From assembly GCA_014384675.1 (NCBI GenBank), contig JACNFK010000024.1:17018-81017 (forward strand): a stretch of 64,000 bases of DNA, in the 5' to 3' direction. A program made the translations under genes and the position numbers. The stretch is from Candidatus Thiopontia autotrophica (GTDB lineage Bacteria > Pseudomonadota > Gammaproteobacteria > GCF-002020875). The notes below the pieces were generated by a model, which ran no database searches, was not told the origin of the DNA, and worked only from the letters and a program-made list of their open reading frames with translations. Below, piece after piece: positions 11,829-35,613 of the stretch (positions are counted from its first letter, which is position 1; each line of letters begins with the position of its first letter).

Positions 11829-11887
11829 ATCACAAAAAATGGTATCTTAGGTACACTATGGTTAGTTCTGTTTAACCCCTGAGAGGA

Positions 11888-12475: not shown

Positions 12476-12481
12476 AGTTAG

Positions 12482-17905: not shown

Positions 17906-18888
17906 GTGTTGATGAAGTAGATATCACCCTGGAGACCAGTGGCACCGAGGGTGTTGCAAAACAAGTCAGCTTCTCTGTAGAGAGATTGCGAGCCAGTGCC
18001 CGCATGGGGCGAGCGTTGGAGGATCTTCAGTCTGGTGACTGCTGGCTTAACTGTCTGCCACTGAACCATGTTGGTGGTCTCTCTATCAAGTATCGCTGTG
18101 AAGAGGCAGGAGCCGCCATGCTGCTTCATGAGGGCTTTGACCCGGAAAAAATTTATGGTGATCTAAAGCGGCACTTTGTTACTCATATTTCACTGGTTCC
18201 GGTAATGCTCTCGAAATTGCTGGACTATTTTGGAGATAAGCCCGCCCCTACATATCTAAAGACGGTACTGATCGGTGGAGACCATCTGCCAAAGTCACTG
18301 GCCCAGCGTGCTGTAGAGAGGGGGTGGCCCATTGTGGTCTCCTATGGGCTGACAGAGACTGCATCAAGGATCACCATGTTGCGACTCTCTGGTGAAAATA
18401 TTGCGGCATGGGATGATAGTGATGTAGGTCCTCCTCTGCCTGGAGTCTCTGTAACCATAGGGGGGCAGGGTGAGATCAGGATAAGGAGTGATCAGCTGCT
18501 GGGTGATCATGAGGTTGTAACCGCTGACCATGGGGCAGTTGATGACAGCGGTCACCTTCATGTTTATGGAAGGCTGGACTGTCGGATTATCTCGGGAGGC
18601 GTGACTATTGATCCTGTAACCATAGAGCAGCTGATGATCTCTGCACCAGGGGTAAAAGATGTGGGTGTAGGCTCTGTTCCTGACAAGGAGTGGGGTGAGC
18701 GTATTGTTGCAGTTATAGCTGGTGATATGAATCAGGACATTGTGGCTGGCTGGATGAGAGAGAATATTCCATCTGGTCTGCGCCCACGAGAACTGCTGTT
18801 GGTCTCCGAGTTAAGACGCAATCGTCTGGGCAAGCTGGATCGAGAGTGGTTAAAAAATCAGGCAGAGAGTGCGTTTAGCATACCCTGA
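17902..18888 (+). CDS. menE: Short-form o-succinylbenzoate-CoA ligase (AMP-binding superfamily)
   Basis: TSGTEG P-loop-like motif, YGLTET, and a length and context typical of short MenE. Confidence 0.65.
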   Translation: MSVDEVDITLETSGTEGVAKQVSFSVERLRASARMGRALEDLQSGDCWLNCLPLNHVGGLSIKYRCEEAGAAMLLHEGFDPEKIYGDLKRHFVTHISLVPVMLSKLLDYFGDKPAPTYLKTVLIGGDHLPKSLAQRAVERGWPIVVSYGLTETASRITMLRLSGENIAAWDDSDVGPPLPGVSVTIGGQGEIRIRSDQLLGDHEVVTADHGAVDDSGHLHVYGRLDCRIISGGVTIDPVTIEQLMISAPGVKDVGVGSVPDKEWGERIVAVIAGDMNQDIVAGWMRENIPSGLRPRELLLVSELRRNRLGKLDREWLKNQAESAFSIP

Positions 18889-20228
18889 ATCTTTAGTCCG
18901 ATCTCTGCTATCTCGTCTTCAGCAACTGACCCCTTAACAATGCCGGCACCGGCGTAGAGAATAGCTTTTTCATCTTCAACCATTGCGCAGCGTAGTAGCA
19001 CATGGATCTCTCCATCTCCATCAGGATCAATCCAGCCGGCACCACCACAATACCCGCCACGGTAGCTGTTGTTGTGTTCAGTTAGCCACTGGAGAGCCGC
19101 TGTTCTTGGGGTTCCACAGATTGCAGGGCTCTGGTGAAGGGCCTCAATCAGCTCAAATATGGAGGTACTGTCTCTTCCGTCTTCTGTTTTCAGCCTCCCC
19201 TTGATCGCGGTCAGTAGATGTTGAATATTCTCAAGCTTGTGAATGGTTGGCGTGGCTGGTATATCTACGGTCTCACAGAGTGGTAGCAGTGCACTGCCGA
19301 CAGCATCAACCACCAGCTGGTGTTCATGACGTAGCTTGGGATTCTTGAGCAGGAGCTGTTCCTGCATACTCTCCTCTTCTTCACTGCTGCCCCGGGGAAG
19401 GGTGCCTGCCAGGGCGTCAGACTCCACGTCGGCTCCTCGCTTGGAGAAGAGGCGTTCAGGAGGTGCGGCAATAAAATGTCTCCCTTCTATGGAGAACGAG
19501 AACTGCGCGGTTGATGGGCTGCTCCGTTCCAGTTTTTTCAGGGTTCGCTCTGTGCCTATCGGATTGGAGAAGTGAAACCGTTGCTGCTCTCCTATTACCA
19601 GCTTCTCGATTGTGTTGGAGTAAATGGTCTCAATAGCATCCCTGAAAATCTGATCTGCCGAATCAAGGCTGTTGTCCGGAGTAATGGTTGATGGGGCGCC
19701 TGGAGGAGGGTGGTTATCTAGAATTTCTCTCAGCTGGTTGATATCCTCCTGCCAGTTTTCCAGGATCTCTTCCTCTGCTATCCCCTCTCTCTGGTGTGAA
19801 AAAATGACACTCTGTCTCCCGCTCTGGTTGATGAGCTGAACGCGTGGCAGCATAAGTAGGGTGTTGGGGAACCCGTGCCACTCATTCTGCATTGGATCAT
19901 CCTCATGGAATGCGTAATGAAACAGAGTTCTTGGTGAGGCTCCGGTCTCTTCCGGGTCAAAAACAGCCCATGAGTTTGTGAGTTGCAGAAACTGTTCCCT
20001 GGCCTCGGTAAAGCGTTCTCTCCCTCTCAGCTCTCTCTGCCATCCGCTCTGCAGTGCGAGCAGCCTTACCCCTTCACGTGGGCTCCTCCAGTAGATACCA
20101 TTTTTTAGGGGTGGTGGGGCAGTGAATGGGCGCTCATTGAATGGCAGAATGATGCTGATAACCTGATCAATTTGGCTGTCACTGTTATTATAAACTAGAT
20201 TAAGTTCATGTTTTAACTTATTGATCAT
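18858..20228 (-). CDS. menF: Isochorismate synthase (chorismate-binding family)
   Basis: C-terminal chorismate-utilising motifs (GGAGWIDPDGDGE, YAGAGIV). Context in the men cluster. Confidence 0.8.
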   Translation of the reverse strand: MINKLKHELNLVYNNSDSQIDQVISIILPFNERPFTAPPPLKNGIYWRSPREGVRLLALQSGWQRELRGRERFTEAREQFLQLTNSWAVFDPEETGASPRTLFHYAFHEDDPMQNEWHGFPNTLLMLPRVQLINQSGRQSVIFSHQREGIAEEEILENWQEDINQLREILDNHPPPGAPSTITPDNSLDSADQIFRDAIETIYSNTIEKLVIGEQQRFHFSNPIGTERTLKKLERSSPSTAQFSFSIEGRHFIAAPPERLFSKRGADVESDALAGTLPRGSSEEEESMQEQLLLKNPKLRHEHQLVVDAVGSALLPLCETVDIPATPTIHKLENIQHLLTAIKGRLKTEDGRDSTSIFELIEALHQSPAICGTPRTAALQWLTEHNNSYRGGYCGGAGWIDPDGDGEIHVLLRCAMVEDEKAILYAGAGIVKGSVAEDEIAEIGLKIQGMLNALSA

Positions 20229-20255
20229 TGGGTGTTGTCTAAGTAAAAACCTGGA

Positions 20256-21077
20256 CTAGGTTCTTCGCTTGTGCTTTGTGAAGTCTGGCGGACGTTTTTC
20301 ATTAAAGGCATTACGGCCTTCCTGTCCTTCGTCTGACATGTAAAAGAGGGCAGTGGCGTTACCTGCCAGCTCCTGAATTCCGGCAAGCCCATCGGTATCT
20401 GCATTAAATCCAGCCTTGAGAAGACGTAGTGCTGTTGGACTGTGCTGCAACATCTCCTGGCACCAACGGATGCTCTCCTCCTCCAGCTTGTCAGCGGGGA
20501 CAACACGGTTGACTAGCCCCATATCCAGTGCCTCCCCGGCACTGTATTGACGACAGAGAAACCAGATCTCTTTTGCCTTTTTCATCCCTACGGTGCGTGC
20601 CAACAGACCCGCTCCAAGACCTGCATCAAAACTTCCGACCTTGGGGCCGGTCTGTCCAAAGATGGCACTGTCGGATGCGATGGAGAGATCACAGATCAGA
20701 TGGAGGACATGGCCACCACCTATGGCGTATCCATTTACCATCGCCACTACCGGCTTTGGCAAGGTACGTATCTGACGCTGCAGGTCGAGTACATTGAGAT
20801 GCTCTCCACCACTCTCATCCTTGTAGCCGCTAGCGCCACGAATCTTCTGGTCACCACCTGAGCAGAATGCCTTCTCTCCTGCACCGGTCAGGATAATGGC
20901 TCCTATCTCACTGTCCATATGTGCGCGGTGAAATGCATCTATCATCTCCTCTACAGTCTCCGGGCGGAAGGCGTTATGTACCTGGGGACGGTTGATGGTG
21001 ATTTTGGCAATCCCCTCTGCACTATCGTAGAGGATATCCCGGTAGTTGGAATCGATATCTCTTATCCACTCAATCAA
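20256..21077 (-). CDS. menB: 1,4-dihydroxy-2-naphthoyl-CoA synthase (crotonase fold)
   Basis: Crotonase signatures ([26 protein letters not shown]), 273 aa. Confidence 0.9.
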
Positions 21078-22903
21078 TGTAGTGACTCCCAGTATTGGTG
21101 ATGGTTACGGTTGCTGATATTGCGATCAATGGTCAATTCTATCAGTTTGGGATGGGGCTGTTGGAGCACCTCATCCAGGTATAGTGCCAGGCCATCTCTA
21201 TCTGTTACCTCTCTGTAGGGGATATCATAGAGGGCGGCAACTCTCTTGAACTCTACCGTAGTTGGGGTTAGCCAAAGTGACTCAAATTCAGGTAGCTGGG
21301 CTGGGGGAAGATGGCTGAAGATGTTGCCGCCACCATTATTGATCACAATAATTGTCAGATCCATCTCCAGCTCTTTTGCCAGATAGAGGGCGTTCAGATT
21401 GTGAAAGAGGGTAAGGTCACCTAGTAGTGCAACAACAGGGGTGTCGGGGTCTGTAACTGCACGAATGCCACAGACGGTGGCAAGGTTGCCATCAATCCCG
21501 CTGGCCCCGCGATTTGCAAACAGTTTTAGAGGCTCCTCTCTTTGAGTCATCCAACCATCGATATCTCTGATCACCATGGAGTTTCCACTAAACAGAATGG
21601 TGCCGCCAGGCAGTTGTCGGTTTAGCGTCCTGATTACCTGATCTTCACTCAGGTCGTCAGGGTTGCTTCTCCATTCTGCCGCTAACCGCTCCTTCTCTTT
21701 TAGTGTATGAAGATGGCTATTACCAGCCTGTGGCTGTGGGCGTCCAGAGGGACACCCGCAAGGCGAAGCGGGGAGATTGTCTGTAGGGTTGGGGTCTGCA
21801 TACTGTAGTAACTGTTGGCAGAAGGTTGCAGGGGAGGTAGAGATTTTTGTATTGGATAGTGATAGTGGATCGCTCCAGACAGTTTTGTGGTGCACGGTGA
21901 TGTAGCGTTTTGGCAGGCTCTCTTGTAGCAGAGTAGCTACCGCTTTCGATAGCGGAAAACGACCAAACTGGATAACCCACTCTGGACGACATAACCTGCG
22001 GTTCTTCTCATTACGGAGGATTCCGTCGTAGTGGGTAAAGAACAGTTGATTGTCGTCATCTCCCCAGCGCAGGTTGGAGAGTGGGTCTGCAAAAACTGGA
22101 GCCCCAAGACTCTCGGCAAGCTGGTTCAGTACTGTATTGAAGCCCTTGGGATAATGTGACTCTCCACACAAGATAACCCCTGGTTTGCCACTGACCTCCT
22201 GGCATATCTCCTGGTAGTCAATAACAGGGATGGTGTTATCAGCATGGTCCCTGGCGGCATATTGCAGGCCACTATTGTGCCACTTGATCTGCTTGCTGTT
22301 GCGGGCAAGAAGTGGTTCTCTAAACGGGATATTCAGGTGGACGGGCCCCGGTGCCGGATTCTCCATTGACTCAATCATCTGTGGAACCAGCTCTGTCAGC
22401 TGAGTAACTGGATCATCTATCTCATCCGGGGGAGGGGTGGTGTATCTGGCACTAACCTGTTCCCCAAAGATATTGTTCTGGGCAATGGTCTGGTTGGCCC
22501 CACAGTTGTGAAGTTCTGGTGGGCGATCTGCAGAGAGTAGCAGAAGAGGGGTGGATGAGTGGTATGCCTCAATAACGGCAGGGAGCCAGTTTGCAACCGC
22601 AGTTCCAGAGGTGCAGATCAGAGCTGTTGGGACTTCTCTCTTTTTGCTCTGTCCAAGTGCCATGAAGGCTGCATCACGTTCATCTACGATGACCCAATAT
22701 TTTGTATCGGGGTGACGAGCTACAGCAAGAGCCAGAGGAGTTGATCTGGAACCGGGTGAGATAACAAAGTGGGTTATGCCGCCATCCACCAGAGCCTGTA
22801 TCAGGGTGGCAGACCACTGCAGGTTTATAGCACCTATATCACTCATATCTCTGCAAAATATCTCTGAGAGCATCAGGGAGGGGTATCTTCTCTCCACTAT
22901 CAA
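21074..22903 (-). CDS. menD: SEPHCHC synthase (ThDP-dependent); likely true start near 22846 ([11 protein letters not shown])
   Basis: N-terminus resembles MenD ([21 protein letters not shown]), ThDP fold. Overlaps the menB start. Confidence 0.85.
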
Positions 22904-23261
22904 TAGAGGTGGTTACATGGGTAGTTGTAACTGTGGCCTTGAGTTGTGGCTTGCCGCCATCATCAAAACCATGCGTCAGGGTTTTCAGGGTAAATGAGTG
23001 GTTGCCAATGGCTGTCACCTGAATAGTAAGGGTAAGGGTTTCACCAAGTTTTATCGGTTGGTGATAATCCGCATCGGCATGGACCAGAGGGATGGCCTCT
23101 CCTCTCTGTTGAATAATGTTGTGAAGAGGCAGGTTGTTGCTGAATAGCATCTCCTCATAGGCATTGTGGGTCAGCCTGAAGAGCTCTCCATAGAAGAGCA
23201 GGCCGGCGCCATCAATCTCGTGAAGTTGAACTCTATGGGGGTAGGAGAAAAAATTATTCAT
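22839..23261 (-). CDS. Hotdog-fold (4HBT/YbgC-like) acyl-CoA thioesterase, probably DHNA-CoA hydrolase
   Basis: 140 aa with the 4HBT-type N-terminal motif (YPHRVQLHEIDGAGLLFYG). Sits between menC and menD. Confidence 0.6.
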   Translation of the reverse strand: MNNFFSYPHRVQLHEIDGAGLLFYGELFRLTHNAYEEMLFSNNLPLHNIIQQRGEAIPLVHADADYHQPIKLGETLTLTIQVTAIGNHSFTLKTLTHGFDDGGKPQLKATVTTTHVTTSIDSGEKIPLPDALRDILQRYE

Positions 23262-24379
23262 GGCAGGGTCAGTATCCCGTTTTTTATCGGTAGAGCCAAC
23301 ATAAGATCTTCTGCTAGCAGTGATGAGGTTGCAAGCCCGTGAGCATGTCTCTGTTCCGGGTCAACAGCTCCAGCACAGTATGCTGCCGAGATTATGCCCA
23401 CGCTACTCTCCAGTGCTGAGGTGATGATGACATCAACCCCTCTCTCTTTAAACTGAGTGGCAATCTTGAAAGTTGTATATGGTCCTCCCATCAGAGCAGG
23501 CTTAAGGACAACACGCTGGAGCTGTTCATTTTTTAGTAATGTCTCAACCCCAAAGTCAGACACTGATTCATCCAGTGCCAGCGGGAAGGGTGTCTCTCTC
23601 TGTAGTTTATTAATAGTCTCAAGGGTGGGGTTTTTAAGTGGCTCTTCCAGAGACTCTATATTTATGGGCATGGGTAGCGCTTGAATGGCAGAGATAAATT
23701 GAGATGCTTCCGTTATGCTCCATGCCTGGTTTGCATCAAGCCTTATTTCAGTGTGCTGTGGCAGTGTTGCAGCTAAGCTGTACAGTTGTGCAACCTCTTC
23801 ATCAATAGATGACAGGCCAACCTTTACCTTTATAACTGATTCACCATCAACTGGTTCTGTTGCTTTGGCAAGAGTACCGGCAGGGTGGTTGACCCTGATT
23901 TTATTGGTGGCATTGGGGGATATCCAGCTGCCTGGGGTCAGGCCGCATCTTTTCGCCAGTATTGTAATCAGGGCAGACTCTACCCCACAACAGGCTGCAG
24001 GAGAGGTGTTGCGTAGATCTGGAAGTCTGGCCAGCAGGTCATCGACAGAGATGTTGTCTGCCTCTTCCTTTAATAGCTCCAGAGTTTTGCGGCACTGTTC
24101 CAGTGATTCGCTACCCATCTCTGGTAGAGGTGCCGCATCTCCCAGCCCTGCTACGCTATCCTGCTCACTTATCTCTACAAGAAAACCTGCACGATTGTTG
24201 ATGGTTCCATGGCTAGTTACCCATGGATGCCTGAGTGGCAAGTGATAGGGGAGGATGAAGAGTGAATTAATCATCATCCAGGATGGATAGATAGGCCAGC
24301 AGGTTGTGAATATCTTCCTCGCTATACTCGTTGAAGAGGGATTCATTTGTCTCCTCATTGTCATGAACCCTGTTGCCAT
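23258..24379 (-). CDS. menC: o-Succinylbenzoate synthase (enolase superfamily); likely start near 24277 (MMINSLFILPY)
   Basis: Enolase-superfamily catalytic residues (KVKVG, DANQAW, LEEP, ALDES..D). Context in the men cluster. Confidence 0.75.
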   Translation of the reverse strand: MATGFMTMRRQMNPSSTSIARKIFTTCWPIYPSWMMINSLFILPYHLPLRHPWVTSHGTINNRAGFLVEISEQDSVAGLGDAAPLPEMGSESLEQCRKTLELLKEEADNISVDDLLARLPDLRNTSPAACCGVESALITILAKRCGLTPGSWISPNATNKIRVNHPAGTLAKATEPVDGESVIKVKVGLSSIDEEVAQLYSLAATLPQHTEIRLDANQAWSITEASQFISAIQALPMPINIESLEEPLKNPTLETINKLQRETPFPLALDESVSDFGVETLLKNEQLQRVVLKPALMGGPYTTFKIATQFKERGVDVIITSALESSVGIISAAYCAGAVDPEQRHAHGLATSSLLAEDLMLALPIKNGILTLP

Positions 24380-24935
24380 CCCTGTAGGCGAAGATCTGTT
24401 TCAATAGATATGCACTATATTGTCCAGTTAGTAGAGGAATACTCTTTTTAGGTTTCCCCTCCCCATGACGGCCATGACAGCTTGCACACTCTTGGTTGTA
24501 GAGCTTTTCTCCTGCATTCACATCACCTTCGAGCCTGGGTATGGTGAGTAGCTTCTTACTTAGTAGCAGACGTTCATAGGCATCAAAGTTCTCTTCATCT
24601 ATTGGCGGAAGTTTTGAATAGAGTTGTATGGTCGGGAGGTATGCAGATACATCCAGCAGATCCTCCTCCGGCAGCTCTCGCTCCTTGGTGTATGGAATCA
24701 TGGGGTGGTTGAGACGTTCACGACTTTTGAAACGACGTAGCTCCTCTGCAATGTATTTTTCCGGCAGTCCTGCTAGACGGGGATACTCTCCCTCCTTGCC
24801 CCCTTCGGCATATTCACCATGACAGCCTGCACATACCTCGTTGATCTCCTCACCAATCTCAAGATTTGCAGCAGATGAGATACCTGATACAACCACAATG
24901 GCCATTGCTCTGAATGTCTGTTTGATTCCTTCCAT
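24267..24935 (-). CDS. Dihaem cytochrome c (c4-like), the last gene after nosY
   Basis: Signal peptide plus CAGCHGE and CASCHGRHG motifs. Confidence 0.75.
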   Translation of the reverse strand: MEGIKQTFRAMAIVVVSGISSAANLEIGEEINEVCAGCHGEYAEGGKEGEYPRLAGLPEKYIAEELRRFKSRERLNHPMIPYTKERELPEEDLLDVSAYLPTIQLYSKLPPIDEENFDAYERLLLSKKLLTIPRLEGDVNAGEKLYNQECASCHGRHGEGKPKKSIPLLTGQYSAYLLKQIFAYRDGNRVHDNEETNESLFNEYSEEDIHNLLAYLSILDDD

Positions 24936-24961
24936 GGCAGGTATTCAGGATGGTAGAGTTG

Positions 24962-25789
24962 CTAAAGTTGATCACCACGGCGGAACAGCATATATCCGAC
25001 AGAGGCAGCGACTGTACCTAGTACAAGAGGGTATGCCATAGCCCATACCAGATACCAGAACTCGCCAAAATGGTCGAGAATGAGATAGGCTGAGGGGCCG
25101 AGCAGAACAAGCTGAGGATCAAACAGCAGCATCGATGCGGTACGAAAAACCTGTAGTGGGTTGCTCAGTGCGATGGCAACAATAGTATCCGAGGGGATCT
25201 GTTGCTGAATCATTATGCCAAGCAGAATAAGATCCAGAAACAGTAGCAGGAAGAGCCAGATCATGAAGGCGCTACCCTGAGCCACATCTGGTGACCTGGC
25301 AATGGTGGAGATTAGCATCCCAATACCAAGGAAGCACCACGATAGAGAGAAGAGCATGGCTGTGTAGAAGAGGAAGATGGACCATGGAATCTCCATATCC
25401 TGAATAACTCCCCATGCAATTGCCCCTGCCATGGCAAGGAAAACAGGAAGGAAGACTACGGTAAAGCGACCAAACATCTTTCCCCAGAACCATGAGGAGA
25501 GAGATATGGGTAGTGAGAGCAGGTACTCAAAGATTCCTGCATCACGATCACCGGCGACAGAGCGTACTGTGGTTATCAGAATAAATATCGGGAGAATAGC
25601 CATTGATAGCTGAATGTATGTAATCAGGAGGCGGGAGAGTCCGACAAACCCCATTATTCTGGATTCAGTCAATCCAAAGGCAAATAGCAGGGCAATAATT
25701 CCCCCAAAGACAATTGAATATATAAGGAACCACTTGCTACGCAGTGACTCGGAGATATCTGCCTTTGCTGTCATCAAGGTGTGCTTCAT
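24962..25789 (-). CDS. nosY: ABC-2 type permease NosY
   Basis: Six TM helices, ~275 aa, overlaps the nosL stop by 4 bp. Context with nosD and nosF. Confidence 0.7.
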   Translation of the reverse strand: MKHTLMTAKADISESLRSKWFLIYSIVFGGIIALLFAFGLTESRIMGFVGLSRLLITYIQLSMAILPIFILITTVRSVAGDRDAGIFEYLLSLPISLSSWFWGKMFGRFTVVFLPVFLAMAGAIAWGVIQDMEIPWSIFLFYTAMLFSLSWCFLGIGMLISTIARSPDVAQGSAFMIWLFLLLFLDLILLGIMIQQQIPSDTIVAIALSNPLQVFRTASMLLFDPQLVLLGPSAYLILDHFGEFWYLVWAMAYPLVLGTVAASVGYMLFRRGDQL

Positions 25790-26415
25790 GGTTTGCTACC
25801 ATCCTGTGGCTGTTTGGGGCGATTGGCCTCTTCGGCACGGTGGGCAAGACGAGCCTTTAGTGAGGCATAGTAGCTCTCCTCCTGACTGAAGACAGAACTT
25901 CTCATCTCCAGGAAGCCGACTGAATCCTGAGTGGCTTTGGGTTGCGCACTAAAGCCATAATTCATCGGGGTATGGGTAACTTTTACATATTGTGCCTCTC
26001 TGGCGTTTAGCCACCCTCCATCTTGATAGTTGTTTACCCATATCTCGGTTTTTGGGTCATCTCTCCATGGCTGCTCTTCGAGCCAGAGTAGAGCACAGCC
26101 TATATCATCAAAAGTATATGGCTTATGGTGTTTGCCACCACGAATCTGGGCAGAGTGGTTGCGATCACTAAGTGCCATCATGCAACGATCACAATTGTCG
26201 CGATCCCAGGTGACATCAACCGGGCCTGTTGCGGGATCACCGCTACAACCAGCAAGAGAGAGCAATAGGGCCAGAGATGCCATCTTCAGTGAGTTTATGG
26301 TTGCCCATCTCACTGTCTGCTCTCCTCGATATTGACTGTTGCCAGCAAGGCGGCATAGCGTGAAAGTACTCCCAGAAAACGGAGGCGATCTGGTCCTGGA
26401 ATAGTTCCAGTCCAC
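25786..26415 (-). CDS. nosL: Copper-binding lipoprotein NosL (likely start MASLALLLSLAGCSG near 26285)
   Basis: Lipobox LAGC. CDRCMM..DRNHSAQI resembles the NosL CxxCxM copper motif. Confidence 0.65.
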   Translation of the reverse strand: MDWNYSRTRSPPFSGSTFTLCRLAGNSQYRGEQTVRWATINSLKMASLALLLSLAGCSGDPATGPVDVTWDRDNCDRCMMALSDRNHSAQIRGGKHHKPYTFDDIGCALLWLEEQPWRDDPKTEIWVNNYQDGGWLNAREAQYVKVTHTPMNYGFSAQPKATQDSVGFLEMRSSVFSQEESYYASLKARLAHRAEEANRPKQPQDGSKP

Positions 26416-27299
26416 TCTGTTTCAGAGTCCTGGTTGCTGAATCCCCATGAGCTGATGGCGGCAGAAAATGCTGGTTCGATACGAGTGGTCTTGATGGTGC
26501 AGTTGAGCAGGCTGGATAGCTCAACACTATCATCAACTCGATCATCCAGAATTACCTTGCCTCGATCCAGCTCAATCACCCGGTTTACCAGTGATGCAAC
26601 CTCATCAAGTCGATGGCTGGAGATCAGCATTGCGGTCTCTTTTCTCTTCTTCTCAAGCATGGAGAAGAGGATATGTCTGGCCTCAGGATCAAGGTTGGCA
26701 GCCGGCTCATCCATTATGAGTAGATTGGTAGGGCGCCCAAGCGCTATGGCAATCAGCAGTTTCTGTTTCTGCCCGCCAGAGAGTTTTACAAATGGCCTTT
26801 TTTTGATGGTATCCAGTCCGAGCCCCAACTGTTCAGCTACTGATGCCATCTCTTCTGTGGAGCACCCACAGACACTGGCAGAGAAATCGAGAAGTTGTTG
26901 AACCGGCATCTTTAGTGGTGGAGGGAGTTGGGGTACAAATCCTATCCGTGAGAGAACCTCTTTTCTCTCCTTGCGAGGGCTCTTGCCATCAAGGGTGATC
27001 TCTCCATCGCAGCTGTATTCACCGAGCAGACAGCGGATCAGAGTTGTCTTGCCGGCACCATTGGAGCCGATAAGGGCAACCCTGTCACCAGTCTTGATCT
27101 CCAGATCAAGCTCCTGCAGAACTGTGGTGCGTCTGAAGCTCTTTGATACCCCCTGCAAGATGATCATTTTTTCTTGCTCAGCCCTTTGAAGTGGTAGCTT
27201 AGAGAGTCTGTTGGACAGACATCTACACACATGCCGCACCTGGTGCAGTCGGGACCTATGCCCACATTCACATCTGGTGCACGTCCCTTGATTGTCCAC
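26310..27299 (-). CDS. nosF: ABC ATPase NosF (likely start MIILQGV near 27167)
   Basis: Walker A GSNGAGKTT, ABC signature LSGGQKQK, Walker B LLIMDEP. Confidence 0.8.
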   Translation of the reverse strand: MDNQGTCTRCECGHRSRLHQVRHVCRCLSNRLSKLPLQRAEQEKMIILQGVSKSFRRTTVLQELDLEIKTGDRVALIGSNGAGKTTLIRCLLGEYSCDGEITLDGKSPRKERKEVLSRIGFVPQLPPPLKMPVQQLLDFSASVCGCSTEEMASVAEQLGLGLDTIKKRPFVKLSGGQKQKLLIAIALGRPTNLLIMDEPAANLDPEARHILFSMLEKKRKETAMLISSHRLDEVASLVNRVIELDRGKVILDDRVDDSVELSSLLNCTIKTTRIEPAFSAAISSWGFSNQDSETEWTGTIPGPDRLRFLGVLSRYAALLATVNIEESRQ

Positions 27300-28156
27300 T
27301 CCAGCACATGTGGAACCAGACAGACCTTGCGGCAGTCTCCTTCATGGTGGCAGGCGTCAACATTGTAGTTGATCTTCAATGGGGAGAAGATACCAACAAA
27401 GCCATAGGTAAGGCCGATAGGGCAGGCATAGCGACACCAGGCTCTGCGCGAGTAGAGGATCTCTACAGTAAGCAGAAACAGTACCCAGAGCAGCGCAACT
27501 GTAGGGCCATAAATCAGTGCTCGACTCAGAATTCCCGTGGGGGAGATCGCCTCAAAAATCGTGTAACCGGTACCAAGTGCCAGGGCAATAAAGATGATAT
27601 ATAGGTAGAGGCGTGCCTTACGGTTAAAGAGATGGTTTTTGATTATCTTCTTTTCAACCAGTTTAATATGGATCATCTCGGCAAATTCCGAGAGCAGATG
27701 GTATGGGCAGACCCAGGAGCAGAAGGTGCGTCCGCCCAATAATAGCCAGAGGATAAGGATAGTGACAGTTCCAATAAGCAGGTTGATTACAACTGTCTTG
27801 AAGGCGAGCATCACCTGCAGAGCTGAGTTTAGGTCAGCCATATGGAATCCAAGAAAACGGGATGCAGTTAGTGCGCCCTCCAATACCTGGATATCCAGCG
27901 TATAGGAGACGACAAAAAGGAGGTTAATCAGGATTAGAGTGGTCCAGCGTCTTTTGCGCCACTTTTTGTTGTGAGTTTCACGATATATCTGGTGCTCTTC
28001 ACGTGCCTTTACCTTATCTATATCGCCATTTTTTCTCTTGCGCTCATGGAGCTCTTGCGCCGCGGCAGAAATTTTTTCAGGAGGAGTTTTGGCGGGGCTT
28101 TTCCCCATCATTATGTTGACGCAATACTTGCCGATCTTCATGCGACATCCTCCCAC
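27164..28156 (-). CDS. nosH: NosH, a NapH-like membrane ferredoxin
   Basis: CSWVCP and CPIGL motifs, two C-terminal 4Fe-4S motifs, paralogous to the ORF at 1894. Inside the nos cluster. Confidence 0.75.
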   Translation of the reverse strand: MGGCRMKIGKYCVNIMMGKSPAKTPPEKISAAAQELHERKRKNGDIDKVKAREEHQIYRETHNKKWRKRRWTTLILINLLFVVSYTLDIQVLEGALTASRFLGFHMADLNSALQVMLAFKTVVINLLIGTVTILILWLLLGGRTFCSWVCPYHLLSEFAEMIHIKLVEKKIIKNHLFNRKARLYLYIIFIALALGTGYTIFEAISPTGILSRALIYGPTVALLWVLFLLTVEILYSRRAWCRYACPIGLTYGFVGIFSPLKINYNVDACHHEGDCRKVCLVPHVLEWTIKGRAPDVNVGIGPDCTRCGMCVDVCPTDSLSYHFKGLSKKK

Positions 28157-28962
28157 ACTTTTCTCTCATCTATGACAATTGATGGAGCAGCAGTTGGGCA
28201 GACCATCTCGCAGACTCCGCATCCTACACATCCCTCCAGCACGGTAGGGCGGTAACGCAGGCCACCATCTGGCTTCTTCTCTACGGAAAGCATGATTGCC
28301 CGGTGTGGAGGACACTGATTCTTGTCTCCGGACGGTGGTTTACCTGCATCACACTGGTTGGCCCGTATCTCTATTGGACAGAGGCGAACGCAAAGATCAC
28401 AGAGTGGCAGATCAAAATGTTGTTCATTAAGTTGTTGTGGCTCCCAGCGGTCAATCTCGTCAAAGCGAAGCTTGCCGTTGTACTCGGGCCCACGGGTAAT
28501 CCCCCTGAACCCCTCTTTTTTCATCGCAAGACATTCATCTGGCAGTTCAAGGCGCGCGATCCCCATCCTGGTTTCATGGGAGTAGTTGATCTCATGGGTC
28601 AGTGCACCGGTTGGGCATGCCAGAACACACTGCAAGCCATCACAGGAGAAGTCACAAGCCTGGTCACGGGCATCAATATAGGCTGCCCCCTGACCCTGGC
28701 CATCAAAAATATCTGCCAACTCAATGGCCTCTACCGGACATACCTGAACACACTGCCCGCACTTGATGCAGGAGGCCAGGTACTCCTTCTCATCGAGGGC
28801 GCCGGGGGGGCGTAATCTAGGGGCAGTATTGCTTACTGTGGGTAGCAGGGTAAGTAATGAGAATCCTGTAACCCCAACAACCATGGCTGAGGTTCTCATG
28901 AACTCTCGACGCTCCCTCTCTTTTCTTGATAGACGCTTAGGTCTCTTCTCTGATTCGCTCAT
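28138..28962 (-). CDS. nosG: NosG, a NapG-like periplasmic poly-ferredoxin with a Tat signal
   Basis: RREFMR twin-arginine motif and four 4Fe-4S cysteine motifs. Overlaps the nosD stop. Confidence 0.75.
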   Translation of the reverse strand: MSESEKRPKRLSRKERERREFMRTSAMVVGVTGFSLLTLLPTVSNTAPRLRPPGALDEKEYLASCIKCGQCVQVCPVEAIELADIFDGQGQGAAYIDARDQACDFSCDGLQCVLACPTGALTHEINYSHETRMGIARLELPDECLAMKKEGFRGITRGPEYNGKLRFDEIDRWEPQQLNEQHFDLPLCDLCVRLCPIEIRANQCDAGKPPSGDKNQCPPHRAIMLSVEKKPDGGLRYRPTVLEGCVGCGVCEMVCPTAAPSIVIDERKVWEDVA

Positions 28963-30380
28963 TGCAGGCTATTCTCAAGTAGTCTTAGTGATGATGACCA
29001 ATCCTTTTTGGCCTGTTTTTCATCTTCAATTGTAGCTTCCTCTATTAAATCGTTCAGCTCTGCTGTTGTCTCGGCAACACGATTTTCACTGTTTAGTATA
29101 CGGCTATCCAGGGATGCCAATAGTGGTTTTTCATCCCTCAACAGTAGTGTTGGTTCAGAGAATGGGGCAAGCTGCTCAAGAAAATCAAGTGATGCAAGAA
29201 GTGGTGTTCCCATAAAGAAGCGGGCATCAGGGCGGTCCATCCAGAGTCGATCAGCATAGGCGTAGAGCTCGTAGGGCGTATCTCCAGTGCCGTCACTATT
29301 CTGATCAAATCCCTCATAGTCATCCCAGTGATTTCCTTCCCACACATTTTTGGTGGCACCGCCGTTTCCATCGACAGCCACCTGCGTGATGTTGTCCTTG
29401 AAGCTATTATTGCGCGCAACATTTCCCCACCACGGGGTATGGAAGAGCATACCGATGCCATTAAAGGCAATCAGGTTGTCCTCCATCAGGTTGATGGTAT
29501 CTGGTTGGTATGGGGATACATCACTATAGATGCCGGTGGCACAGTATAGAATCTTGTTGCCGGTGATTTTAACGTCACTGGTCTCCTTGAGCCCTATCCC
29601 CATCCCTGTTGTCCCCTGAGAGTGGGCTATATAGTTGTTTTTGATTACTGCACTATCACTGTACATCAGGAATATACCTACAGAGTTGTCTGTATACTCA
29701 TTCTCCTCAATCAGATTTCCCTGTGAGTACATAAAGTGGAGAGCATAGCGTCCACCGGATGATCTGTTGCGAGCAATGGTGTTGTCTTTCGAGTACCAGA
29801 CAACCATATCTCGAGAGTTGGTAATAATGTTATCGGTGACCTGGTTATCAAAGCTATACCAGAGTCGGACCGAGTCCCCCTGAAGACCAAGAGCCCGATC
29901 ACTTTTAGAGCTGATTTTGTTGCGACGAATAATGTTGTTCTTTGATTGGCTCAGGTCGATCCCGAACAGACACTCTTCTATGGAGTTGTCCTTCACTACA
30001 TTAAAGTCTCCCTTAACCTGAACCCCGGAATCTACATCATTATGAGAACCGCCAGAATTGATTAGGCGGAGATTCTGTAGAGTTGCTCCATCAGTATCCA
30101 GGTAAATTACACTTCCTTTTCCACCTGCATCAATGGTAACCCCATTCTTTCCATCAATGGTGATAGGGGTCTCAATGGTGACGGGACCAGCATATATTCC
30201 TGCTGGTGGTGTCAACAGACCACCCTTTGGGGTGGCATCTACAAGATCCTGAAAGGAGGGAAGATCTGTAGCCTTAGACTGAGGCATGATCACAGAAAGA
30301 GTTACAGTTAATGCTGTTAACAGTAACCAGCGTGTAGTGAGATGAGGTCGGTTCCAGCTCTCCACCATCACTTGTTTCAC
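28959..30380 (-). CDS. nosD: NosD, a periplasmic right-handed beta-helix protein for CuZ assembly
   Basis: Signal peptide and repeated PbH1-like units (NNxI..N, multiple N/D-rich turns), ~470 aa. Confidence 0.8.
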   Translation of the reverse strand: MKQVMVESWNRPHLTTRWLLLTALTVTLSVIMPQSKATDLPSFQDLVDATPKGGLLTPPAGIYAGPVTIETPITIDGKNGVTIDAGGKGSVIYLDTDGATLQNLRLINSGGSHNDVDSGVQVKGDFNVVKDNSIEECLFGIDLSQSKNNIIRRNKISSKSDRALGLQGDSVRLWYSFDNQVTDNIITNSRDMVVWYSKDNTIARNRSSGGRYALHFMYSQGNLIEENEYTDNSVGIFLMYSDSAVIKNNYIAHSQGTTGMGIGLKETSDVKITGNKILYCATGIYSDVSPYQPDTINLMEDNLIAFNGIGMLFHTPWWGNVARNNSFKDNITQVAVDGNGGATKNVWEGNHWDDYEGFDQNSDGTGDTPYELYAYADRLWMDRPDARFFMGTPLLASLDFLEQLAPFSEPTLLLRDEKPLLASLDSRILNSENRVAETTAELNDLIEEATIEDEKQAKKDWSSSLRLLENSLQ

Positions 30381-30410
30381 GTTTACGGACTTCGACTAAA
30401 TCGATCGGTT

Positions 30411-31622: not shown

Positions 31623-31747
31623 GTTGTAAAAACCCTTATATCTTTTGTTGTCTGGTTTTATTGCCCTGTCTTGTTCTATACGTCGTTACTCACTCCTCCA
31701 TGAGAAAATCTGGATTCACCCTCCTGTAGGGGAGGGTGAATCAAACA

Positions 31748-32476
31748 TTAGTCGTAGTCGGGGTTGATCCAGCCAACAGCCCCCAGATCCTCTGCAGGTA
31801 CAGGGATACGGGATGTATAGTCTATAACCGCCTTCATATCTGCATCACTGAATTCGGCAATCTGCTTGACCATGTCAGGGTTGGCATTACGGCGCTTGCC
31901 ATCACGAATCCACTCGAACTGACGCAACATATAGGCATAGTGCTGCCCATGGATCTTGGGATAGAACTTCTCCTGGTTGCCCTCACCATTGTCACCATGA
32001 CACTGTGTGCAGTTTTTCTTGTAGAGCTCTTCGCCTCGGGCAAGATCTGTTCCGTCACCCTTGCCATTGTCCGGGTTCATTGGCAGTTTGGCGATGTAGT
32101 CGGTTACATCTGCAATTGCCTGCTCGTCACCAATCGACTCAGGAAGGGCAAAAGGGTACATTGTTGGGTTATCACGATTCAGGGCACGAATATCTGCCAA
32201 CTGTTTGATCAGTACATTTTTGTGCTGTCCTGCCAGTTGGGGGAATGTTCCGTTCTGCATCCCCCACCCCTCCAGAAGGTGACATGCAGAGCAGACCTCG
32301 TATACCTCGATTCCATTCTCACGGTCAGGAGTAAGTGTCATTGCAACACTCTGCTCACCTTCACCGGTATTCCAGTCCTTTACATCGGTAACCTGTCCAC
32401 CGGCTGATACCGAGGCGTTAACTCCTATTCCAATAAATGCGACCCCAGCCACAATTGCCGTAATTTTCTTCATCAA
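31748..32476 (-). CDS. Dihaem cytochrome c (NosC2-like, c4 family)
   Basis: Signal peptide plus CSACH and CTQCHG motifs. Paralog of the ORF at 12482. Confidence 0.75.
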   Translation of the reverse strand: MMKKITAIVAGVAFIGIGVNASVSAGGQVTDVKDWNTGEGEQSVAMTLTPDRENGIEVYEVCSACHLLEGWGMQNGTFPQLAGQHKNVLIKQLADIRALNRDNPTMYPFALPESIGDEQAIADVTDYIAKLPMNPDNGKGDGTDLARGEELYKKNCTQCHGDNGEGNQEKFYPKIHGQHYAYMLRQFEWIRDGKRRNANPDMVKQIAEFSDADMKAVIDYTSRIPVPAEDLGAVGWINPDYD

Positions 32477-32566
32477 TATCTCTCCACTATGTTCTGTTTA
32501 TTCAGGCGTTCTATAGATTATGTGATAGAGCCATTTTTTGCTTTGATCTGTGTCAATGCTCTCTTT

Positions 32567-32887
32567 TTACTTCAGGGTTGATAGCCACTCGGCAATCTCT
32601 GCCATCTCTGTCTCATTAACCAGCCCCATTACACCTTGCATGGCGGCAGCACCGCCGTTATTACGAACTCCGGACTTGATATCCTTCATCTGATTAAGAG
32701 CATACTCTTTGCTCTGGCCAGCCAGTTTTGGGTATGTAGGAAGTACAGGGGTCTGTGCATCCTTTCCATGACATGCCCAGCATGTCTTGCTCTCATAGAG
32801 TGCTGCACCATCTGCCGATGCTGTTGTAGCCATTGTAGATAACATGGCTATTGATGTTGCTACCAGGAGAGTTTTACTAATATTCAT
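32567..32887 (-). CDS. Monohaem cytochrome c (NosC1-like, c551/c552 family)
   Basis: Signal peptide and a single CWACHG motif, 106 aa. Confidence 0.75.
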   Translation of the reverse strand: MNISKTLLVATSIAMLSTMATTASADGAALYESKTCWACHGKDAQTPVLPTYPKLAGQSKEYALNQMKDIKSGVRNNGGAAAMQGVMGLVNETEMAEIAEWLSTLK

Positions 32888-32983
32888 TATCTATTCCTCT
32901 GTTCAATTATTGTCAAACTGCATTAGATCCTATTCAAACTTTATTTCCAAACTATTTCAGAACAGTTTTTCAAGGAATTTTTA

Positions 32984-33018
32984 TTAAAAAAGGGGAGAGC
33001 AATAAATGCTCTCCCCTT
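32984..33018 (-). terminator. Rho-independent terminator directly after nosZ (minus strand)
   Basis: On the minus strand, ggggagagcatttattgctctcccc followed by TTTTTT. Confidence 0.6.
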
Positions 33019-33045
33019 AAGGACTAACAGTGTGTTAGTTGCGCA

Positions 33046-35415
33046 TTATTTAGCTTGCACAACCGCACCGTGTTGTTCCAGGTAGGTTTTGGCGCGCAGA
33101 CCAATGTCCGCAGCCTTCACCTGGTACTGCCACCACTGACCAGCCTGCAGAGTTGCATTCTGGAAGTCGTTGGCAGCTGCAGATTCCTCTGCCTTTTTCT
33201 GCCATGCTGCAGCAAAGCCCAACTGATCAACGGCATCCTCAACCAGTGCAGTTACTGGTGCGAAGTCCTTGAAGTTGGTGCTGGTGATATAACCTACAAC
33301 ACTGTCGATAATGGCTTGCGTATCCAGATTGGTCTGGTACTGCTTGTCATAGTCTGCCTTGTTATAGGTTGTACCATCAACAATCTCACCCTCTACAGCC
33401 TTGTAGCCTTTGGGTTTGACCAGCAGATAGCCTTCCATCTCAAGGTGGAGTGCTGAACAGAACTCAGTACAGTAGTAGGGGAATACGCCCTCTGTGTCTG
33501 CCATGAATGTTGCAGATACAGTCTTTCCTGGTTCCAGTGAGAGGTTTACATTGGTGCCGTTGATTGCGAAACCGTGGGTCTCATCCTCAGCACGCTCCAG
33601 GTTGGTAAGGTGAATAATTACCTTGTCACCAACCTCGGCCTCAATGGTCTCTGGAGTGATATGTGAACGGATCACAGTACCAAATACCTCAACAGTACAG
33701 TTGTCACCATCACAGGTGCGAGATGTCTTCTCACGACCAGCACGGGTCTTGTAAGGAGAGCGCTTGTCGGAGCGGCTATCCCAACCAGACTTGTAGCGGA
33801 TAGCTGGCTTAAGCTTGTCTGCCTTAATCGCAACCGCGTAGTGCGGTTCGCCCAGTGGTATAGGCATATCATAGAGCAGCTCCATCTTGTCGCCACTGAT
33901 ATCGATCAGCTGGTGGTTCTGTGGATGGAGTGGGCCGACAGGATTGAATCGGTCAATCGCCAGCTTGTCCAGTGCTACCAGATACTTGCCGTCTGGAGAT
34001 GCAGAGTCACCCTCCATAGTCATCAGATGGCCAATATTGTAGTGAATGGAGAGCTTGTCCAGAATCTCACCAGTACAGTAGTTCCACTTGGTGACCTGAG
34101 AGTCTACGTAGATAGAGGTGTAGACAGTACAGTCTTTGGAGTCATACTGCGTATGCAGTGGCCCAAGACCAACCTGTACCTGTCTTTCCAAAGCATCTTC
34201 CAGAGAGACAATGGGGATACCATAGTCATCACGAGCCTCATATTTACCGGCACTGTGTGCAGCCATCATCTTCGCGAAGCTGTATACATATGCGTGGCTA
34301 TCCAGCTTGCCGGATACGATCATGAACTTGCCGTCAGGAGAGACGTCAACACCATGAGGACTCTTTGGTTCAGGAACCAGGAATAGAGCATTGTTCTCAA
34401 CCATGGTCTCCATGGAGAGCACATCCATGCCATTCACTGATTTACCCTTGCCGGCCTTGTAGAGCTCTACTGCCTTCTTCCAGTTAACTGCATGGAGGAA
34501 GTCAGTATCCTTCTGCGAACAGCCTGCCTCATAAGGAGGACGCCCCTTCTCGATACCGCCTACGTAGCGCTCGGAACAGAATGAGTTGGTGAAGGACCAG
34601 CCATCACTACCAAACTTGCCGAAGTCGGAGAGGTCCTGACTGTATGGAGGCATCTCAACTGTAAATGATTGAGATGGATCAAGGCGACCTATCTCACGGT
34701 TGAATTTCCAGTAGGTAACACCGCCACGATAGCGGTCATTGAACTGCTCCAGAGGTACATACTCATCCTCAAATGGTGCAGGGTACTGGGCTGCCTCAAT
34801 TACATAGTCAGTATTTGGAGTTACAAATGCACCACCATGCTCATTATTAAAGTGTGGGTTGACTACAATCTGTTTGGTTTCGAAATCATGTAGATCAACT
34901 ACCGCCAGACGAGGGTTGTTCTTGTCATTAATGAATAGATACTGTCCATCATACTCAGCGTTGGTTTCGGAGATCGCTGGATGGTGGGTATCACCAAAGT
35001 TGATATCCTTACCGTTGATTCTTCCTTGAGCCAGGACTGCCTTGGACTCATCATCAAAGCCGTAACCCTGCCACGGCTCTGGGGTGAATACCGCAACGTA
35101 TTTGAGAATACGCATTGAGGGAATTCCGTAGACAATTAACTGACCACTTTGACCACCAGAACTGAAGGCGAGATACTCATCACGACCTCCAGAAGGGGTG
35201 TAGGTTTTTGCTGCCGCCAATAGATCCTTTTGTGTAAGGCCACGGGCCTCCATCACATCGTCCAGCGCGGATGACCACGCTGCACTTCCGGTTCCGAGCG
35301 ACATTCCGATGGCCATTGCCATTGTGAGTGTCTTTTTAAACATAAGTTGTTGACTCCTGATTGTTTTTTTATCGCCTCGATCTCCTGGGAGAGAAATCTG
35401 GGCGCATGATTTCAA
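33046..35415 (-). CDS. nosZ: Nitrous-oxide reductase NosZ, clade-II-like with a Sec signal (likely start MFKKTL near 35343) and a ~120 aa haem-free C-terminal extension
   Basis: Seven-bladed propeller region. CuA site HGF..CTEFCSALHLEMEG. Signal peptide without RR. Accessory genes nosB/G/H/C are present. Confidence 0.9.
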   Translation of the reverse strand: MKSCAQISLPGDRGDKKTIRSQQLMFKKTLTMAMAIGMSLGTGSAAWSSALDDVMEARGLTQKDLLAAAKTYTPSGGRDEYLAFSSGGQSGQLIVYGIPSMRILKYVAVFTPEPWQGYGFDDESKAVLAQGRINGKDINFGDTHHPAISETNAEYDGQYLFINDKNNPRLAVVDLHDFETKQIVVNPHFNNEHGGAFVTPNTDYVIEAAQYPAPFEDEYVPLEQFNDRYRGGVTYWKFNREIGRLDPSQSFTVEMPPYSQDLSDFGKFGSDGWSFTNSFCSERYVGGIEKGRPPYEAGCSQKDTDFLHAVNWKKAVELYKAGKGKSVNGMDVLSMETMVENNALFLVPEPKSPHGVDVSPDGKFMIVSGKLDSHAYVYSFAKMMAAHSAGKYEARDDYGIPIVSLEDALERQVQVGLGPLHTQYDSKDCTVYTSIYVDSQVTKWNYCTGEILDKLSIHYNIGHLMTMEGDSASPDGKYLVALDKLAIDRFNPVGPLHPQNHQLIDISGDKMELLYDMPIPLGEPHYAVAIKADKLKPAIRYKSGWDSRSDKRSPYKTRAGREKTSRTCDGDNCTVEVFGTVIRSHITPETIEAEVGDKVIIHLTNLERAEDETHGFAINGTNVNLSLEPGKTVSATFMADTEGVFPYYCTEFCSALHLEMEGYLLVKPKGYKAVEGEIVDGTTYNKADYDKQYQTNLDTQAIIDSVVGYITSTNFKDFAPVTALVEDAVDQLGFAAAWQKKAEESAAANDFQNATLQAGQWWQYQVKAADIGLRAKTYLEQHGAVVQAK

Positions 35416-35468: not shown

Positions 35469-35482
35469 TTTGACCTAGATCA
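35469..35482. promoter_or_regulatory. FNR/Dnr-like box TTGAC-CTAG-ATCAA upstream of nosZ
   Basis: 13 of 14 positions match the consensus. Centre is 60 bp before the annotated nosZ ATG and 132 bp before the internal Met. Confidence 0.55.
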
Positions 35483-35613
35483 ATTTGGTTGTTTAATATA
35501 GCCTGAACACAGCATTACACCATTCTGTTACGGAGTGTTTATGTTGCAGGATTCAACCGTTCAGTTATAGTTGGTCGCTACAGCTTTAAAAACCACCGAC
35601 GGAGAGAACAATA

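Follow-up and report, generated by a model that had tools for sequence, protein, structure and literature searches.

The subject of this study is a run of genes for nitrous oxide (N2O) reduction (nos) that continues directly into genes for menaquinone (MK) biosynthesis (men), found in a 64,000-nucleotide stretch of contig JACNFK010000024.1 (hereafter the window) from the gammaproteobacterium Candidatus Thiopontia autotrophica. The window genes were identified by NCBIfam and Pfam profile searches of the translations of open reading frames (ORFs), and independent gene calls were available from a public metagenome contig (91.7 kb, 653x coverage) whose NosZ is identical to that of the window; the identical NosZ was present on 17 contigs among those read. 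Gene content and order from nosZ to menF, as given in an initial annotation of this DNA, were confirmed by both profile collections and by the independent gene calls (Table 1). The end of menF at 18858 also stood as annotated, the start of the string had to be moved from 35415 to the ATG of nosZ at 35343, and the unit was found to extend further, to a convergent plus-strand group menA-trihaem cytochrome-menG-menE (15466-18888) that faces menF, the 3′ ends of menF and menE overlapping by 31 bp.

Gene content and junctions of the nos-men string

The product of nosZ scored 861.6 bits against TIGR04246, the profile for Sec-dependent NosZ (curated cutoff 625), and 366.5 bits against the Tat-type profile TIGR04244, under the cutoff of 625 for that model. 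The start codon is preceded by an AGGAG Shine-Dalgarno sequence and agrees with the gene call on the public contig, and the leader, MFKKTLTMAMAIGMSLGTGSAAWS, is by inspection a Sec-type signal peptide without a twin arginine. The protein contains the CuA motif YYCTEFCSALHLEM and continues for about 110 residues past the CuA domain (residues ~655-765; nucleotides 33046-33380). This C-terminal extension is kept in 80 related loci, with alignments reaching residues 782-789 of the 789-codon query ORF; it has no CXXCH motif and is distinct from the cytochrome c domain of epsilonproteobacterial cNosZ. Judged by its profile scores and leader, the window NosZ is a clade II enzyme of the Sec type, as had been annotated.

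The set of nosB, nosGH and nosC genes that the initial annotation took as a further mark of clade II was recovered in part by family matches, namely for NosG, NosH and the NosC cytochromes, whereas the NosB-like protein, without a match in Pfam or NCBIfam, was assigned by its position and membrane topology. A homologue of it occupies the position between nosC2 and nosD in most related loci. NosH is 29% identical to the NapH encoded at 1894-2787 of the same window. No NosR or NosX homologue was found among the window proteins scanned, the sole NosR signal being a weak partial match inside NosH. The dihaem cytochrome c gene that links the nos block to the men block has the same position in the related loci L002, L009 and L165-L169.

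Regarding the men genes, curated cutoffs were passed by MenF (TIGR00543), MenD (TIGR00173), MenC (TIGR01927), MenB (NF005637/TIGR01929), MenA (NF004751/TIGR00751) and MenG (TIGR01934), and a 4HBT_2 thioesterase gene accompanies menC in several arrangements. The score of MenE with TIGR01923 (199.5 bits) is under the cutoff of 330 owing to the reduced length of the protein: it begins 11 residues ahead of the P-loop and is without some 110-150 N-terminal residues of canonical ligases, and a stop codon immediately upstream leaves no hidden N-terminus. A short MenE is also encoded in L166 (328 residues) and L167 (322 residues), with 57-60% MenD identity to the window, and the related clusters have forms of intermediate length (398-478 residues). 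The possibility that menE is a pseudogene was rejected, since the same short length is kept in these two relatives, and we regard it as a conserved variant and not as a decaying gene. No alpha/beta-hydrolase gene that could encode MenH was found in the men cluster of the window, nor MenH in the related clusters, and it may be encoded elsewhere; the ORF at 16338-17180 was rejected as a candidate because it encodes a secreted trihaem cytochrome c. In other bacteria, MenH often escapes recognition or can be dispensed with. L166 and L167 have homologues of the trihaem cytochrome at the corresponding position, and in Sedimenticola (L017, L031) homologues lie beside ZnuA-Sco. Altogether, MenF, MenD, MenC, MenE, MenB, MenA and MenG are predicted to be encoded between 15466 and 24274, as for the classical o-succinylbenzoate pathway of MK synthesis.

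Analysis of the junctions supported the physical joining of nos to men: from nosB to menF every junction measures at most 42 bp, many of them overlapping, and no terminator-like hairpin was present in the intergenic gaps of this part. The details annotated at first had to be corrected. The largest gap in the string is 158 bp (nosZ/nosC1) and not 125 bp, and overlaps of 4 bp, thought to be present at most junctions, occur at 7 of the 15 (nosD/nosG, nosG/nosH, nosH/nosF, nosF/nosL, nosL/nosY, menC/thioesterase and menD/menB). Two further junctions described as 4-bp overlaps are a 26-bp unstructured gap (nosY/cytochrome c, which is a 4-bp overlap in L168 and L169) and an 8-bp overlap (cytochrome c/menC), the latter length being found also at thioesterase/menD. 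The hairpin that follows nosZ has a folding energy of −22.9 kcal/mol (z = −6.7) and is succeeded by UUUUUUAAUAAAAA. Because strong hairpins follow both nosZ and nosC2, the single super-operon proposed for the string, understood as one simple 16.5-kb transcript, is unlikely; the signals in the DNA more likely correspond to an abundant nosZ message with read-through, together with a long unit of coupled translation that starts at nosB or nosD and extends to menF. A scan for sigma-70 promoters detected sites no more frequently than in shuffled sequence.

Boxes of the FNR/Dnr type were searched with the pattern TTGAT-N4-ATCAA, allowing one mismatch. The window contains 12 of them, against 3.5 expected, and the four perfect ones are all intergenic and lie within the island of denitrification genes described below (two between nirE and nirS, one between a Crp/Fnr gene and a hemerythrin gene, and one between orf115 and menA). 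Of 75 related loci, 50 likewise have similar boxes upstream of nosZ, vs 6.5% of random background windows. Predicted boxes in promoter regions and a Crp/Fnr gene nearby are the features of a putative FNR/Dnr-type denitrification regulon.

Table 1. Features of the nos-men string and of the neighbouring denitrification genes (positions within the window)
Feature	Position	Strand	Basis or remark
FNR/Dnr-type box TTGATCTAGGTCAA (gene strand)	35470..35483		One mismatch; 133 bp upstream of nosZ ATG
nosZ, clade II Sec-dependent nitrous oxide reductase, 765 residues	33046..35343	-	TIGR04246, start codon, signal peptide, gene call
Intrinsic-terminator-like hairpin	32990..33018	-	12-bp stem and U run; directly 3′ of nosZ
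nosC1, monohaem cytochrome c with signal peptide	32567..32887	-	Profile searches
FNR-like box	32543-32556		One mismatch; upstream of nosC2
nosC2, dihaem cytochrome c	31748..32473	-	Profile searches
Second strong hairpin, weak U tract	31713..31742	-	3′ of nosC2; −22.3 kcal/mol
NosB-like polytopic membrane protein, 403 residues	30411..31622	-	Hydropathy (~5-6 hydrophobic segments), position
nosD	28959..30368	-	TIGR04247, 378 bits; start ambiguous, 30368 or 30287
nosG, NapG-like poly-ferredoxin	28138..28962	-	NapG family match; twin-arginine leader RREFMRTS
nosH, NapH-like membrane iron-sulfur protein, putative quinol dehydrogenase subunit	27164..28141	-	TIGR02163, 242 bits
nosF, ABC ATPase	26310..27167	-	Profile searches, gene call
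nosL, lipoprotein	25786..26313	-	Lipobox LAGC; weak Pfam NosL match
nosY, ABC-2 permease	24962..25789	-	Pfam
Dihaem cytochrome c bridging nos and men genes	24267..24935	-	Pfam/NCBIfam, gene call
menC, o-succinylbenzoate synthase	23258..24274	-	TIGR01927, 173 bits (cutoff 130.55); gene call
Hotdog 4HBT_2 thioesterase, likely 1,4-dihydroxy-2-naphthoate (DHNA)-CoA thioesterase	22839..23261	-	Pfam/NCBIfam
menD, 2-succinyl-5-enolpyruvyl-6-hydroxy-3-cyclohexene-1-carboxylate (SEPHCHC) synthase	21074..22846	-	TIGR00173, 423 bits
menB, DHNA-CoA synthase	20256..21077	-	NF005637, 480 bits
menF, isochorismate synthase	18858..20228	-	TIGR00543, 266 bits
menE, o-succinylbenzoate-CoA ligase, N-terminally short, 328 residues	17902..18888	+	Best match TIGR01923
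menG/ubiE-type demethylmenaquinone methyltransferase	17177..17905	+	TIGR01934, 260 bits
Secreted trihaem cytochrome c, cytochrome c′-like C-terminal motif	16338..17180	+	Between menA and menG
menA, DHNA polyprenyltransferase	15466..16341	+	NF004751, 278 bits
Perfect FNR/Dnr-type palindrome TTGATCAAGATCAA	15440..15453		Divergent region orf115/menA
orf115 and ZnuA-SCO1/SenC fusion (CPDVC motif), putative copper-delivery pair	13566..15367	-	Pfam
Hemerythrin and NosC2 paralogue (50% identical to NosC2)	within 11058..13168	+	Divergent from Crp/Fnr regulator
Perfect FNR box	11815-11828		Between Crp/Fnr gene and hemerythrin gene
Crp/Fnr-family regulator	11058-11744	-	Unit 11058..13168
napG, napH, nirF/N-like, nirE, two nirS, NirT-EB_dh fusion	1087..10708		Neighbouring denitrification genes
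NapC/NirT-type tetrahaem domain fused to EB_dh (ethylbenzene-dehydrogenase-like haem)	8975-10708		Fifth CXXCH
Tandem nirS (cytochrome cd1 nitrite reductase) copies	5487-7232 and 7259-8944		Side by side
Two perfect FNR boxes	5252 and 5346		Between nirE and nirS

Recurrence of the nos-men linkage in relatives

A scan of one genome per species for relatives of the window NosZ yielded at least 598 related stretches. The best relatives come from an uncultured Piscirickettsiaceae metagenome-assembled genome (MAG; 89% identity) and from a Thiotrichales MAG of Saanich Inlet (85%), followed at 68-77% by numerous sulfur-oxidising Gamma-, Alpha- and Betaproteobacteria, among them Sedimenticola, Candidatus Thiodiazotropha, tubeworm symbionts, Thiocapsa, Magnetovibrio, Terasakiella and Rhodobium. 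Since hundreds of proteobacterial loci carry this type of NosZ at 68-89% identity, a clade II nos cluster is not unusual in a gammaproteobacterium, contrary to what had been annotated.

To describe the gene context, window proteins were mapped by tblastn onto the 80 best NosZ loci among these stretches, and a men gene lying at most 10 kb from nosZ was taken as linkage. Men-specific genes were linked in 16 of the 80 loci, and a menG-type gene alone in five more (21/80). The linked genes are arranged in different ways. In L002 and L009, nosY is followed by the cytochrome c gene and menC, as in the window, whereas menF-D-B-A-C is divergent from nosZ in L003, L004 and L008, as well as in L089, which was detected in a metagenome scan. 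The order in L059 and L060 is menB-menA-(TlpA-like gene)-menC-thioesterase, then nosZ to nosY, then menG-menE; as menB, menA, menC and the thioesterase gene precede nosZ, the nos cluster is nested inside the men genes. Four Sedimenticola MAGs have menE with a divergent thioesterase-menC pair upstream of nosZ, Rhodobium-type alphaproteobacteria have menG-menA and then nosZ, and in L021 and L030 nosY is followed by menG. A lone menA is the neighbour of nosZ in L022, L024 and L049. In a neighbour-joining tree of NosZ, the linkage arrangements fall into separate subclades, at least seven in number. Assuming that every genome has a men cluster and that overlap by chance occurs in 3% of cases, the probability of 16 linked loci in 80 is ~2e-9 (binomial), and that of 7 linked lineages in 20 is ~1e-6.

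Two candidates were discarded in this comparison: a 609-residue ORF upstream of menB in L060, considered as MenD, has no family match, and ORFs upstream in Sedimenticola L075, considered as menF and menD, encode molybdoenzyme subunits. The gene inserted between menA and menC in L060 (7688-8368), just upstream of nosZ, encodes a TlpA/ResA-like thiol:disulfide oxidoreductase of the type involved in copper-centre maturation.

Linkage was also evident when approached from the men side. The window and 11 contexts from among the nearest MenD homologues, with identities from 100% down to 40%, were inspected in their genomic context, and 11 of the 12 contexts are linked to nos. All five MenD relatives at 78, 60, 57, 53 and 47% identity keep the exact string of the window (nosC1-C2-B-D-G-H-F-L-Y, cytochrome c, menC, thioesterase, menD, menB, menF), and two of them also keep the convergent unit of short menE, menG, cytochrome and menA, along with the divergent pair of orf and ZnuA/Sco genes. 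At 40-43% identity, five of six relatives are nos-linked.

Cultured strains are included in this group. In Sulfuricella denitrificans skB26 (AP013066.1, 370904-392601; L171), whose MenD is 42% identical to that of the window, the clade II-type genes nosD-G-H-F-L-Y continue on the same strand into men genes, nap and nir genes being close by as in the window, and the same order is seen in the MAGs L174 and L175. Unlike the window, menG-menE-menF-menD come directly after nosY, and MenE is full length in Sulfuricella. In Thiohalomonas denitrificans and in the genome of L030, cytochrome c-menF-D-B-A-C-crp-thioesterase converges on a nos cluster that ends in nosY-menG-menE. Crp/Fnr genes were observed inside Thiohalomonas-type men clusters, in the gap between menC and the thioesterase gene and past the latter (L172, 14607-16637; L173, 12345-13064), and their position is consistent with an anaerobic control of MK synthesis. 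In L174, genes for UbiU and UbiV that pass curated cutoffs, followed by an SCP2 (UbiT-like) gene, were found at 19422-21354, 7.7 kb from the nos-men string; as UbiU and UbiV are also encoded, this organism makes both quinones and MK is an additional one.

The synteny comparison, proposed initially as a check, thus showed that the linkage recurs on both the NosZ and the MenD side. These data indicate that nos-men linkage is frequent, evolutionarily persistent and beyond chance, and the conservation and recurrence of the fusion in relatives argue for a functional link between the two gene sets.

The surrounding denitrification island

The string is part of a larger group of genes. The men genes are, by predicted gene content, embedded in a denitrification island, since nir, nap, copper-chaperone and regulator genes adjoin them. 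The GC content (0.46-0.52) is flat over the window, with no composition shift marking an island boundary, so base composition is uninformative as an island marker. To the right of nosZ lie the housekeeping genes purT, thrS, infC, pheST, proS, ilv and leuA.

The small secreted ORF orf115 precedes a gene for a ZnuA-SCO1/SenC fusion, and this pair is located directly upstream of nosZ in 15 of the 80 related loci (Thiodiazotropha, Sedimenticola and tubeworm symbionts), which suggests a role in copper delivery for nos. The region containing the Crp/Fnr regulator, the hemerythrin gene and the NosC2 paralogue may possibly constitute an O2- or NO-sensing regulatory unit of the island. The two NirS copies are identical at 516 of 518 positions of the mature protein, their differences being confined to the first 45-65 N-terminal residues. 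The NirT and EB_dh parts that are fused in the window are separate adjacent genes in Sulfuricella and in L175.

Further observations were made around nosZ. A gene for a small secreted protein of 130 residues without family match (35614-36006, plus strand) is divergent from nosZ and is kept beside it only in the two closest relatives (L001 and L002). In the Thiotrichaceae-like MAG loci L052 and L068, tblastn revealed two nosZ segments followed by about 10 consecutive NosC1-like segments, suggesting that nosZ is followed there by tandemly arrayed copies or by one very long cytochrome c with many domains.

A proposed menaquinone supply for N2O reduction

The recurrent pairing suggests that the clade II-type N2O reductase may depend on MK. 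We lean, with moderate confidence, towards reading the window as the denitrification island of an uncultured gammaproteobacterium related to Thiotrichales that contains an FNR-type regulated module supplying MK to a NosGH-type electron route. Under anoxia or N-oxide stress, the Crp/Fnr-family regulator would act on the TTGAT-N4-ATCAA boxes upstream of nirS, of the regulator/hemerythrin pair, of the divergent orf115-ZnuA-Sco/menA pair and of nosZ, and we infer that nir, nos, copper-chaperone and men genes would be switched on jointly in this way. The nosZ gene would be strongly transcribed, with most transcripts terminating at its own hairpin, and read-through would produce the translationally coupled unit of nosB-D-G-H-F-L-Y, cytochrome c, menC, thioesterase, menD, menB and menF, in which the men genes downstream of nosY would be co-transcribed with the nos accessory genes. 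The Men enzymes would then turn chorismate into MK, and the low-potential menaquinol would pass electrons to the NapGH-like NosGH, on to NosC1, NosC2 and the extra cytochromes c, and finally to NosZ; alternatively, NosGH would keep the copper centres of NosZ reduced. This supply of MK to NosGH, or for keeping NosZ reduced, is the weakest step of the proposed mechanism. The host lineage is presumed to be ubiquinone-based, and the MK pathway would travel and be expressed with the machinery that needs it. Evidence that the Men pathway has repeatedly entered Pseudomonadota by horizontal transfer (PMC11707229) speaks in favour of this proposal.

Several observations weigh against it. Around 59 of the 80 related nos loci have no men gene within 10 kb; L170 contains menC-thioesterase-menD-menB-menF without nos; and a metagenome scan with MenB revealed unlinked men clusters (L085, L086 and L090) besides the linked L089, so that linkage is frequent but not universal. 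In the nearest MenB loci the men genes are ordered menF-D-B-A-C and, among the long loci, nosZ was found in L089 only; a dihaem cytochrome c, DsbA and PCuAC are encoded near the men genes of L085 and L086. The hairpins after nosZ and nosC2, the absence of MenH from the cluster and the N-terminal truncation of MenE count in the same direction. So does the fact that the island also encodes NapGH and a quinol dehydrogenase of the NirT type, since it may be these that actually use MK. The initial annotation assumed that NosGH-type dehydrogenases use MK, and this is not established: a preference for ubiquinol is reported for NapGH of E. coli, and it is disputed whether NapGH acts as a quinol dehydrogenase in Epsilonproteobacteria (PMC6195509).

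The main alternative is a general role of the men genes in anaerobic respiration, with MK used by NapGH/NapC, the NirT-type dehydrogenase, Nar or other enzymes; men would then adjoin nos only because all these genes share a single FNR-regulated, horizontally mobile island, and not through a specific need of Nos for MK. The napGH genes, the NirT-EB_dh fusion and nirS of the window island, all with FNR boxes, fit such an explanation, as do narHJI after menF in L165 and the nap and nir genes after menD in Sulfuricella and L175, and enzymes of the NapC/NirT type are classically menaquinol-linked (PMC6195509). We nevertheless consider it unlikely, though a serious contender, given that nos is the constant immediate neighbour of men over at least seven arrangements, often overlapping or nested, whereas the nap, nir and nar genes are variable neighbours or missing, and given that the divergent menF-D-B-A-C arrangement and those of Sedimenticola and the Rhodobium type place men genes beside nosZ with no nir or nap genes between.

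It is also conceivable, but improbable, that the pathway yields a bound cofactor derived from naphthoquinone (DHNA or demethylmenaquinone-like) for NosB, NosH or a copper-centre maturation factor. The lack of MenH and the conserved, unusually short MenE could be understood in this way, along with the maturation-type genes interleaved with men (ZnuA-Sco, the TlpA-like gene of L060 and cytochromes c); against this, the presence and conservation of menA and menG are what would be expected if a complete membrane MK were made, and other bacteria often manage without a recognisable MenH. An adjacency without functional coupling, left by accident from a single past transfer or rearrangement and with men genes perhaps decaying, is already disfavoured and appears very improbable. 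It could draw on the truncated MenE, the missing MenH and the lack of a composition shift at the island boundary; however, all ORFs are intact, the short length of MenE is conserved in L166 and L167, and linkage in many independent arrangements and lineages is far above chance.

Comparison with known systems places the preferred reading, a dedicated MK supply to the NosGH route, in context. The clade II cluster of Wolinella succinogenes, with the order nosZ-B-D-G-C1-C2-H-F-Y-L (Simon et al. 2004; Hein et al. 2017, as presented in PMC6195509), has in common with the window a Sec-type NosZ, the NapGH-like NosG and NosH, NosC1 and NosC2, and NosDFYL, and the NosB-like membrane protein of the window would be the counterpart of its NosB. 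The window differs from that description in having C1 and C2 ahead of nosB and nosL ahead of nosY, in the haem-free extension of NosZ in place of a cytochrome c domain, in the extra dihaem cytochrome c and in the men genes fused downstream. Wolinella makes MK constitutively by the futalosine route and would therefore need no linked men genes. The classical pathway of E. coli (menFDHBCE) has homologues of MenF, MenD, MenC, MenE, MenB, MenA and MenG in the window, which differs by the lack of MenH, by a 4HBT_2 thioesterase in place of YdiI, by the short MenE and by the distribution of the genes over two convergent units that have cytochrome c genes among them and are joined to nos. A similar logic of cofactor supply beside the enzyme is known for nirS and the haem d1 genes nirE and nirF/N, and the window itself has nirE and a nirF/N-like gene by nirS; unlike that case, the window would supply a diffusible membrane quinone through an eight-gene pathway and not an enzyme-bound prosthetic group.

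The horizontally acquired Men clusters of Pseudomonadota (PMC11707229; ISME J 2024) are likewise compact men clusters in a phylum with ancestral ubiquinone, and were described as patchy in distribution and conserved in architecture within clades. Unlike them, the men genes of the window are physically joined to a terminal-reductase system; that study makes no mention of nos and leaves open whether other genes accompanied the acquisition of MK. No description of nos-men linkage was found in full-text searches of the open-access literature, and no discussion of the Sulfuricella nos-men locus was found in the literature. The annotated novelty of the arrangement holds in the sense that no paper was found; the arrangement itself is already present in public genomes, including those of cultured strains, and is an unremarked feature and not a new sequence. 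All its parts belong to known families, and it is the recurrent, conserved coupling of a quinone pathway to a terminal-reductase cluster that appears to be new.

A more far-reaching proposal, which we advance tentatively and with some doubt, is that MK is an obligatory partner of the NosGH/NosB-type (clade II) N2O machinery, as electron donor or for copper-centre reduction, and that one re-acquisition of Men in ubiquinone-based Pseudomonadota would have been driven by nos and travelled with it. How electrons reach clade II NosZ, and what NosGH and NosB contribute, are unsettled questions, and the nos-men fusion gives a concrete, testable hypothesis, namely that NosGH-type machinery needs a low-potential quinone in bacteria expected to rely on ubiquinone. 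Two cultured species, Sulfuricella denitrificans and Thiohalomonas denitrificans, have the linkage too, which makes this hypothesis directly testable, and it provides a direct example for the question, raised by PMC11707229, of what accompanied the re-acquisition of MK in Pseudomonadota.

Organisms with clade II NosZ are regarded as important sinks of the greenhouse gas N2O. If the proposal is true, many sulfur oxidisers of marine and freshwater habitats would rely for their N2O consumption on a dedicated, co-regulated quinone supply.

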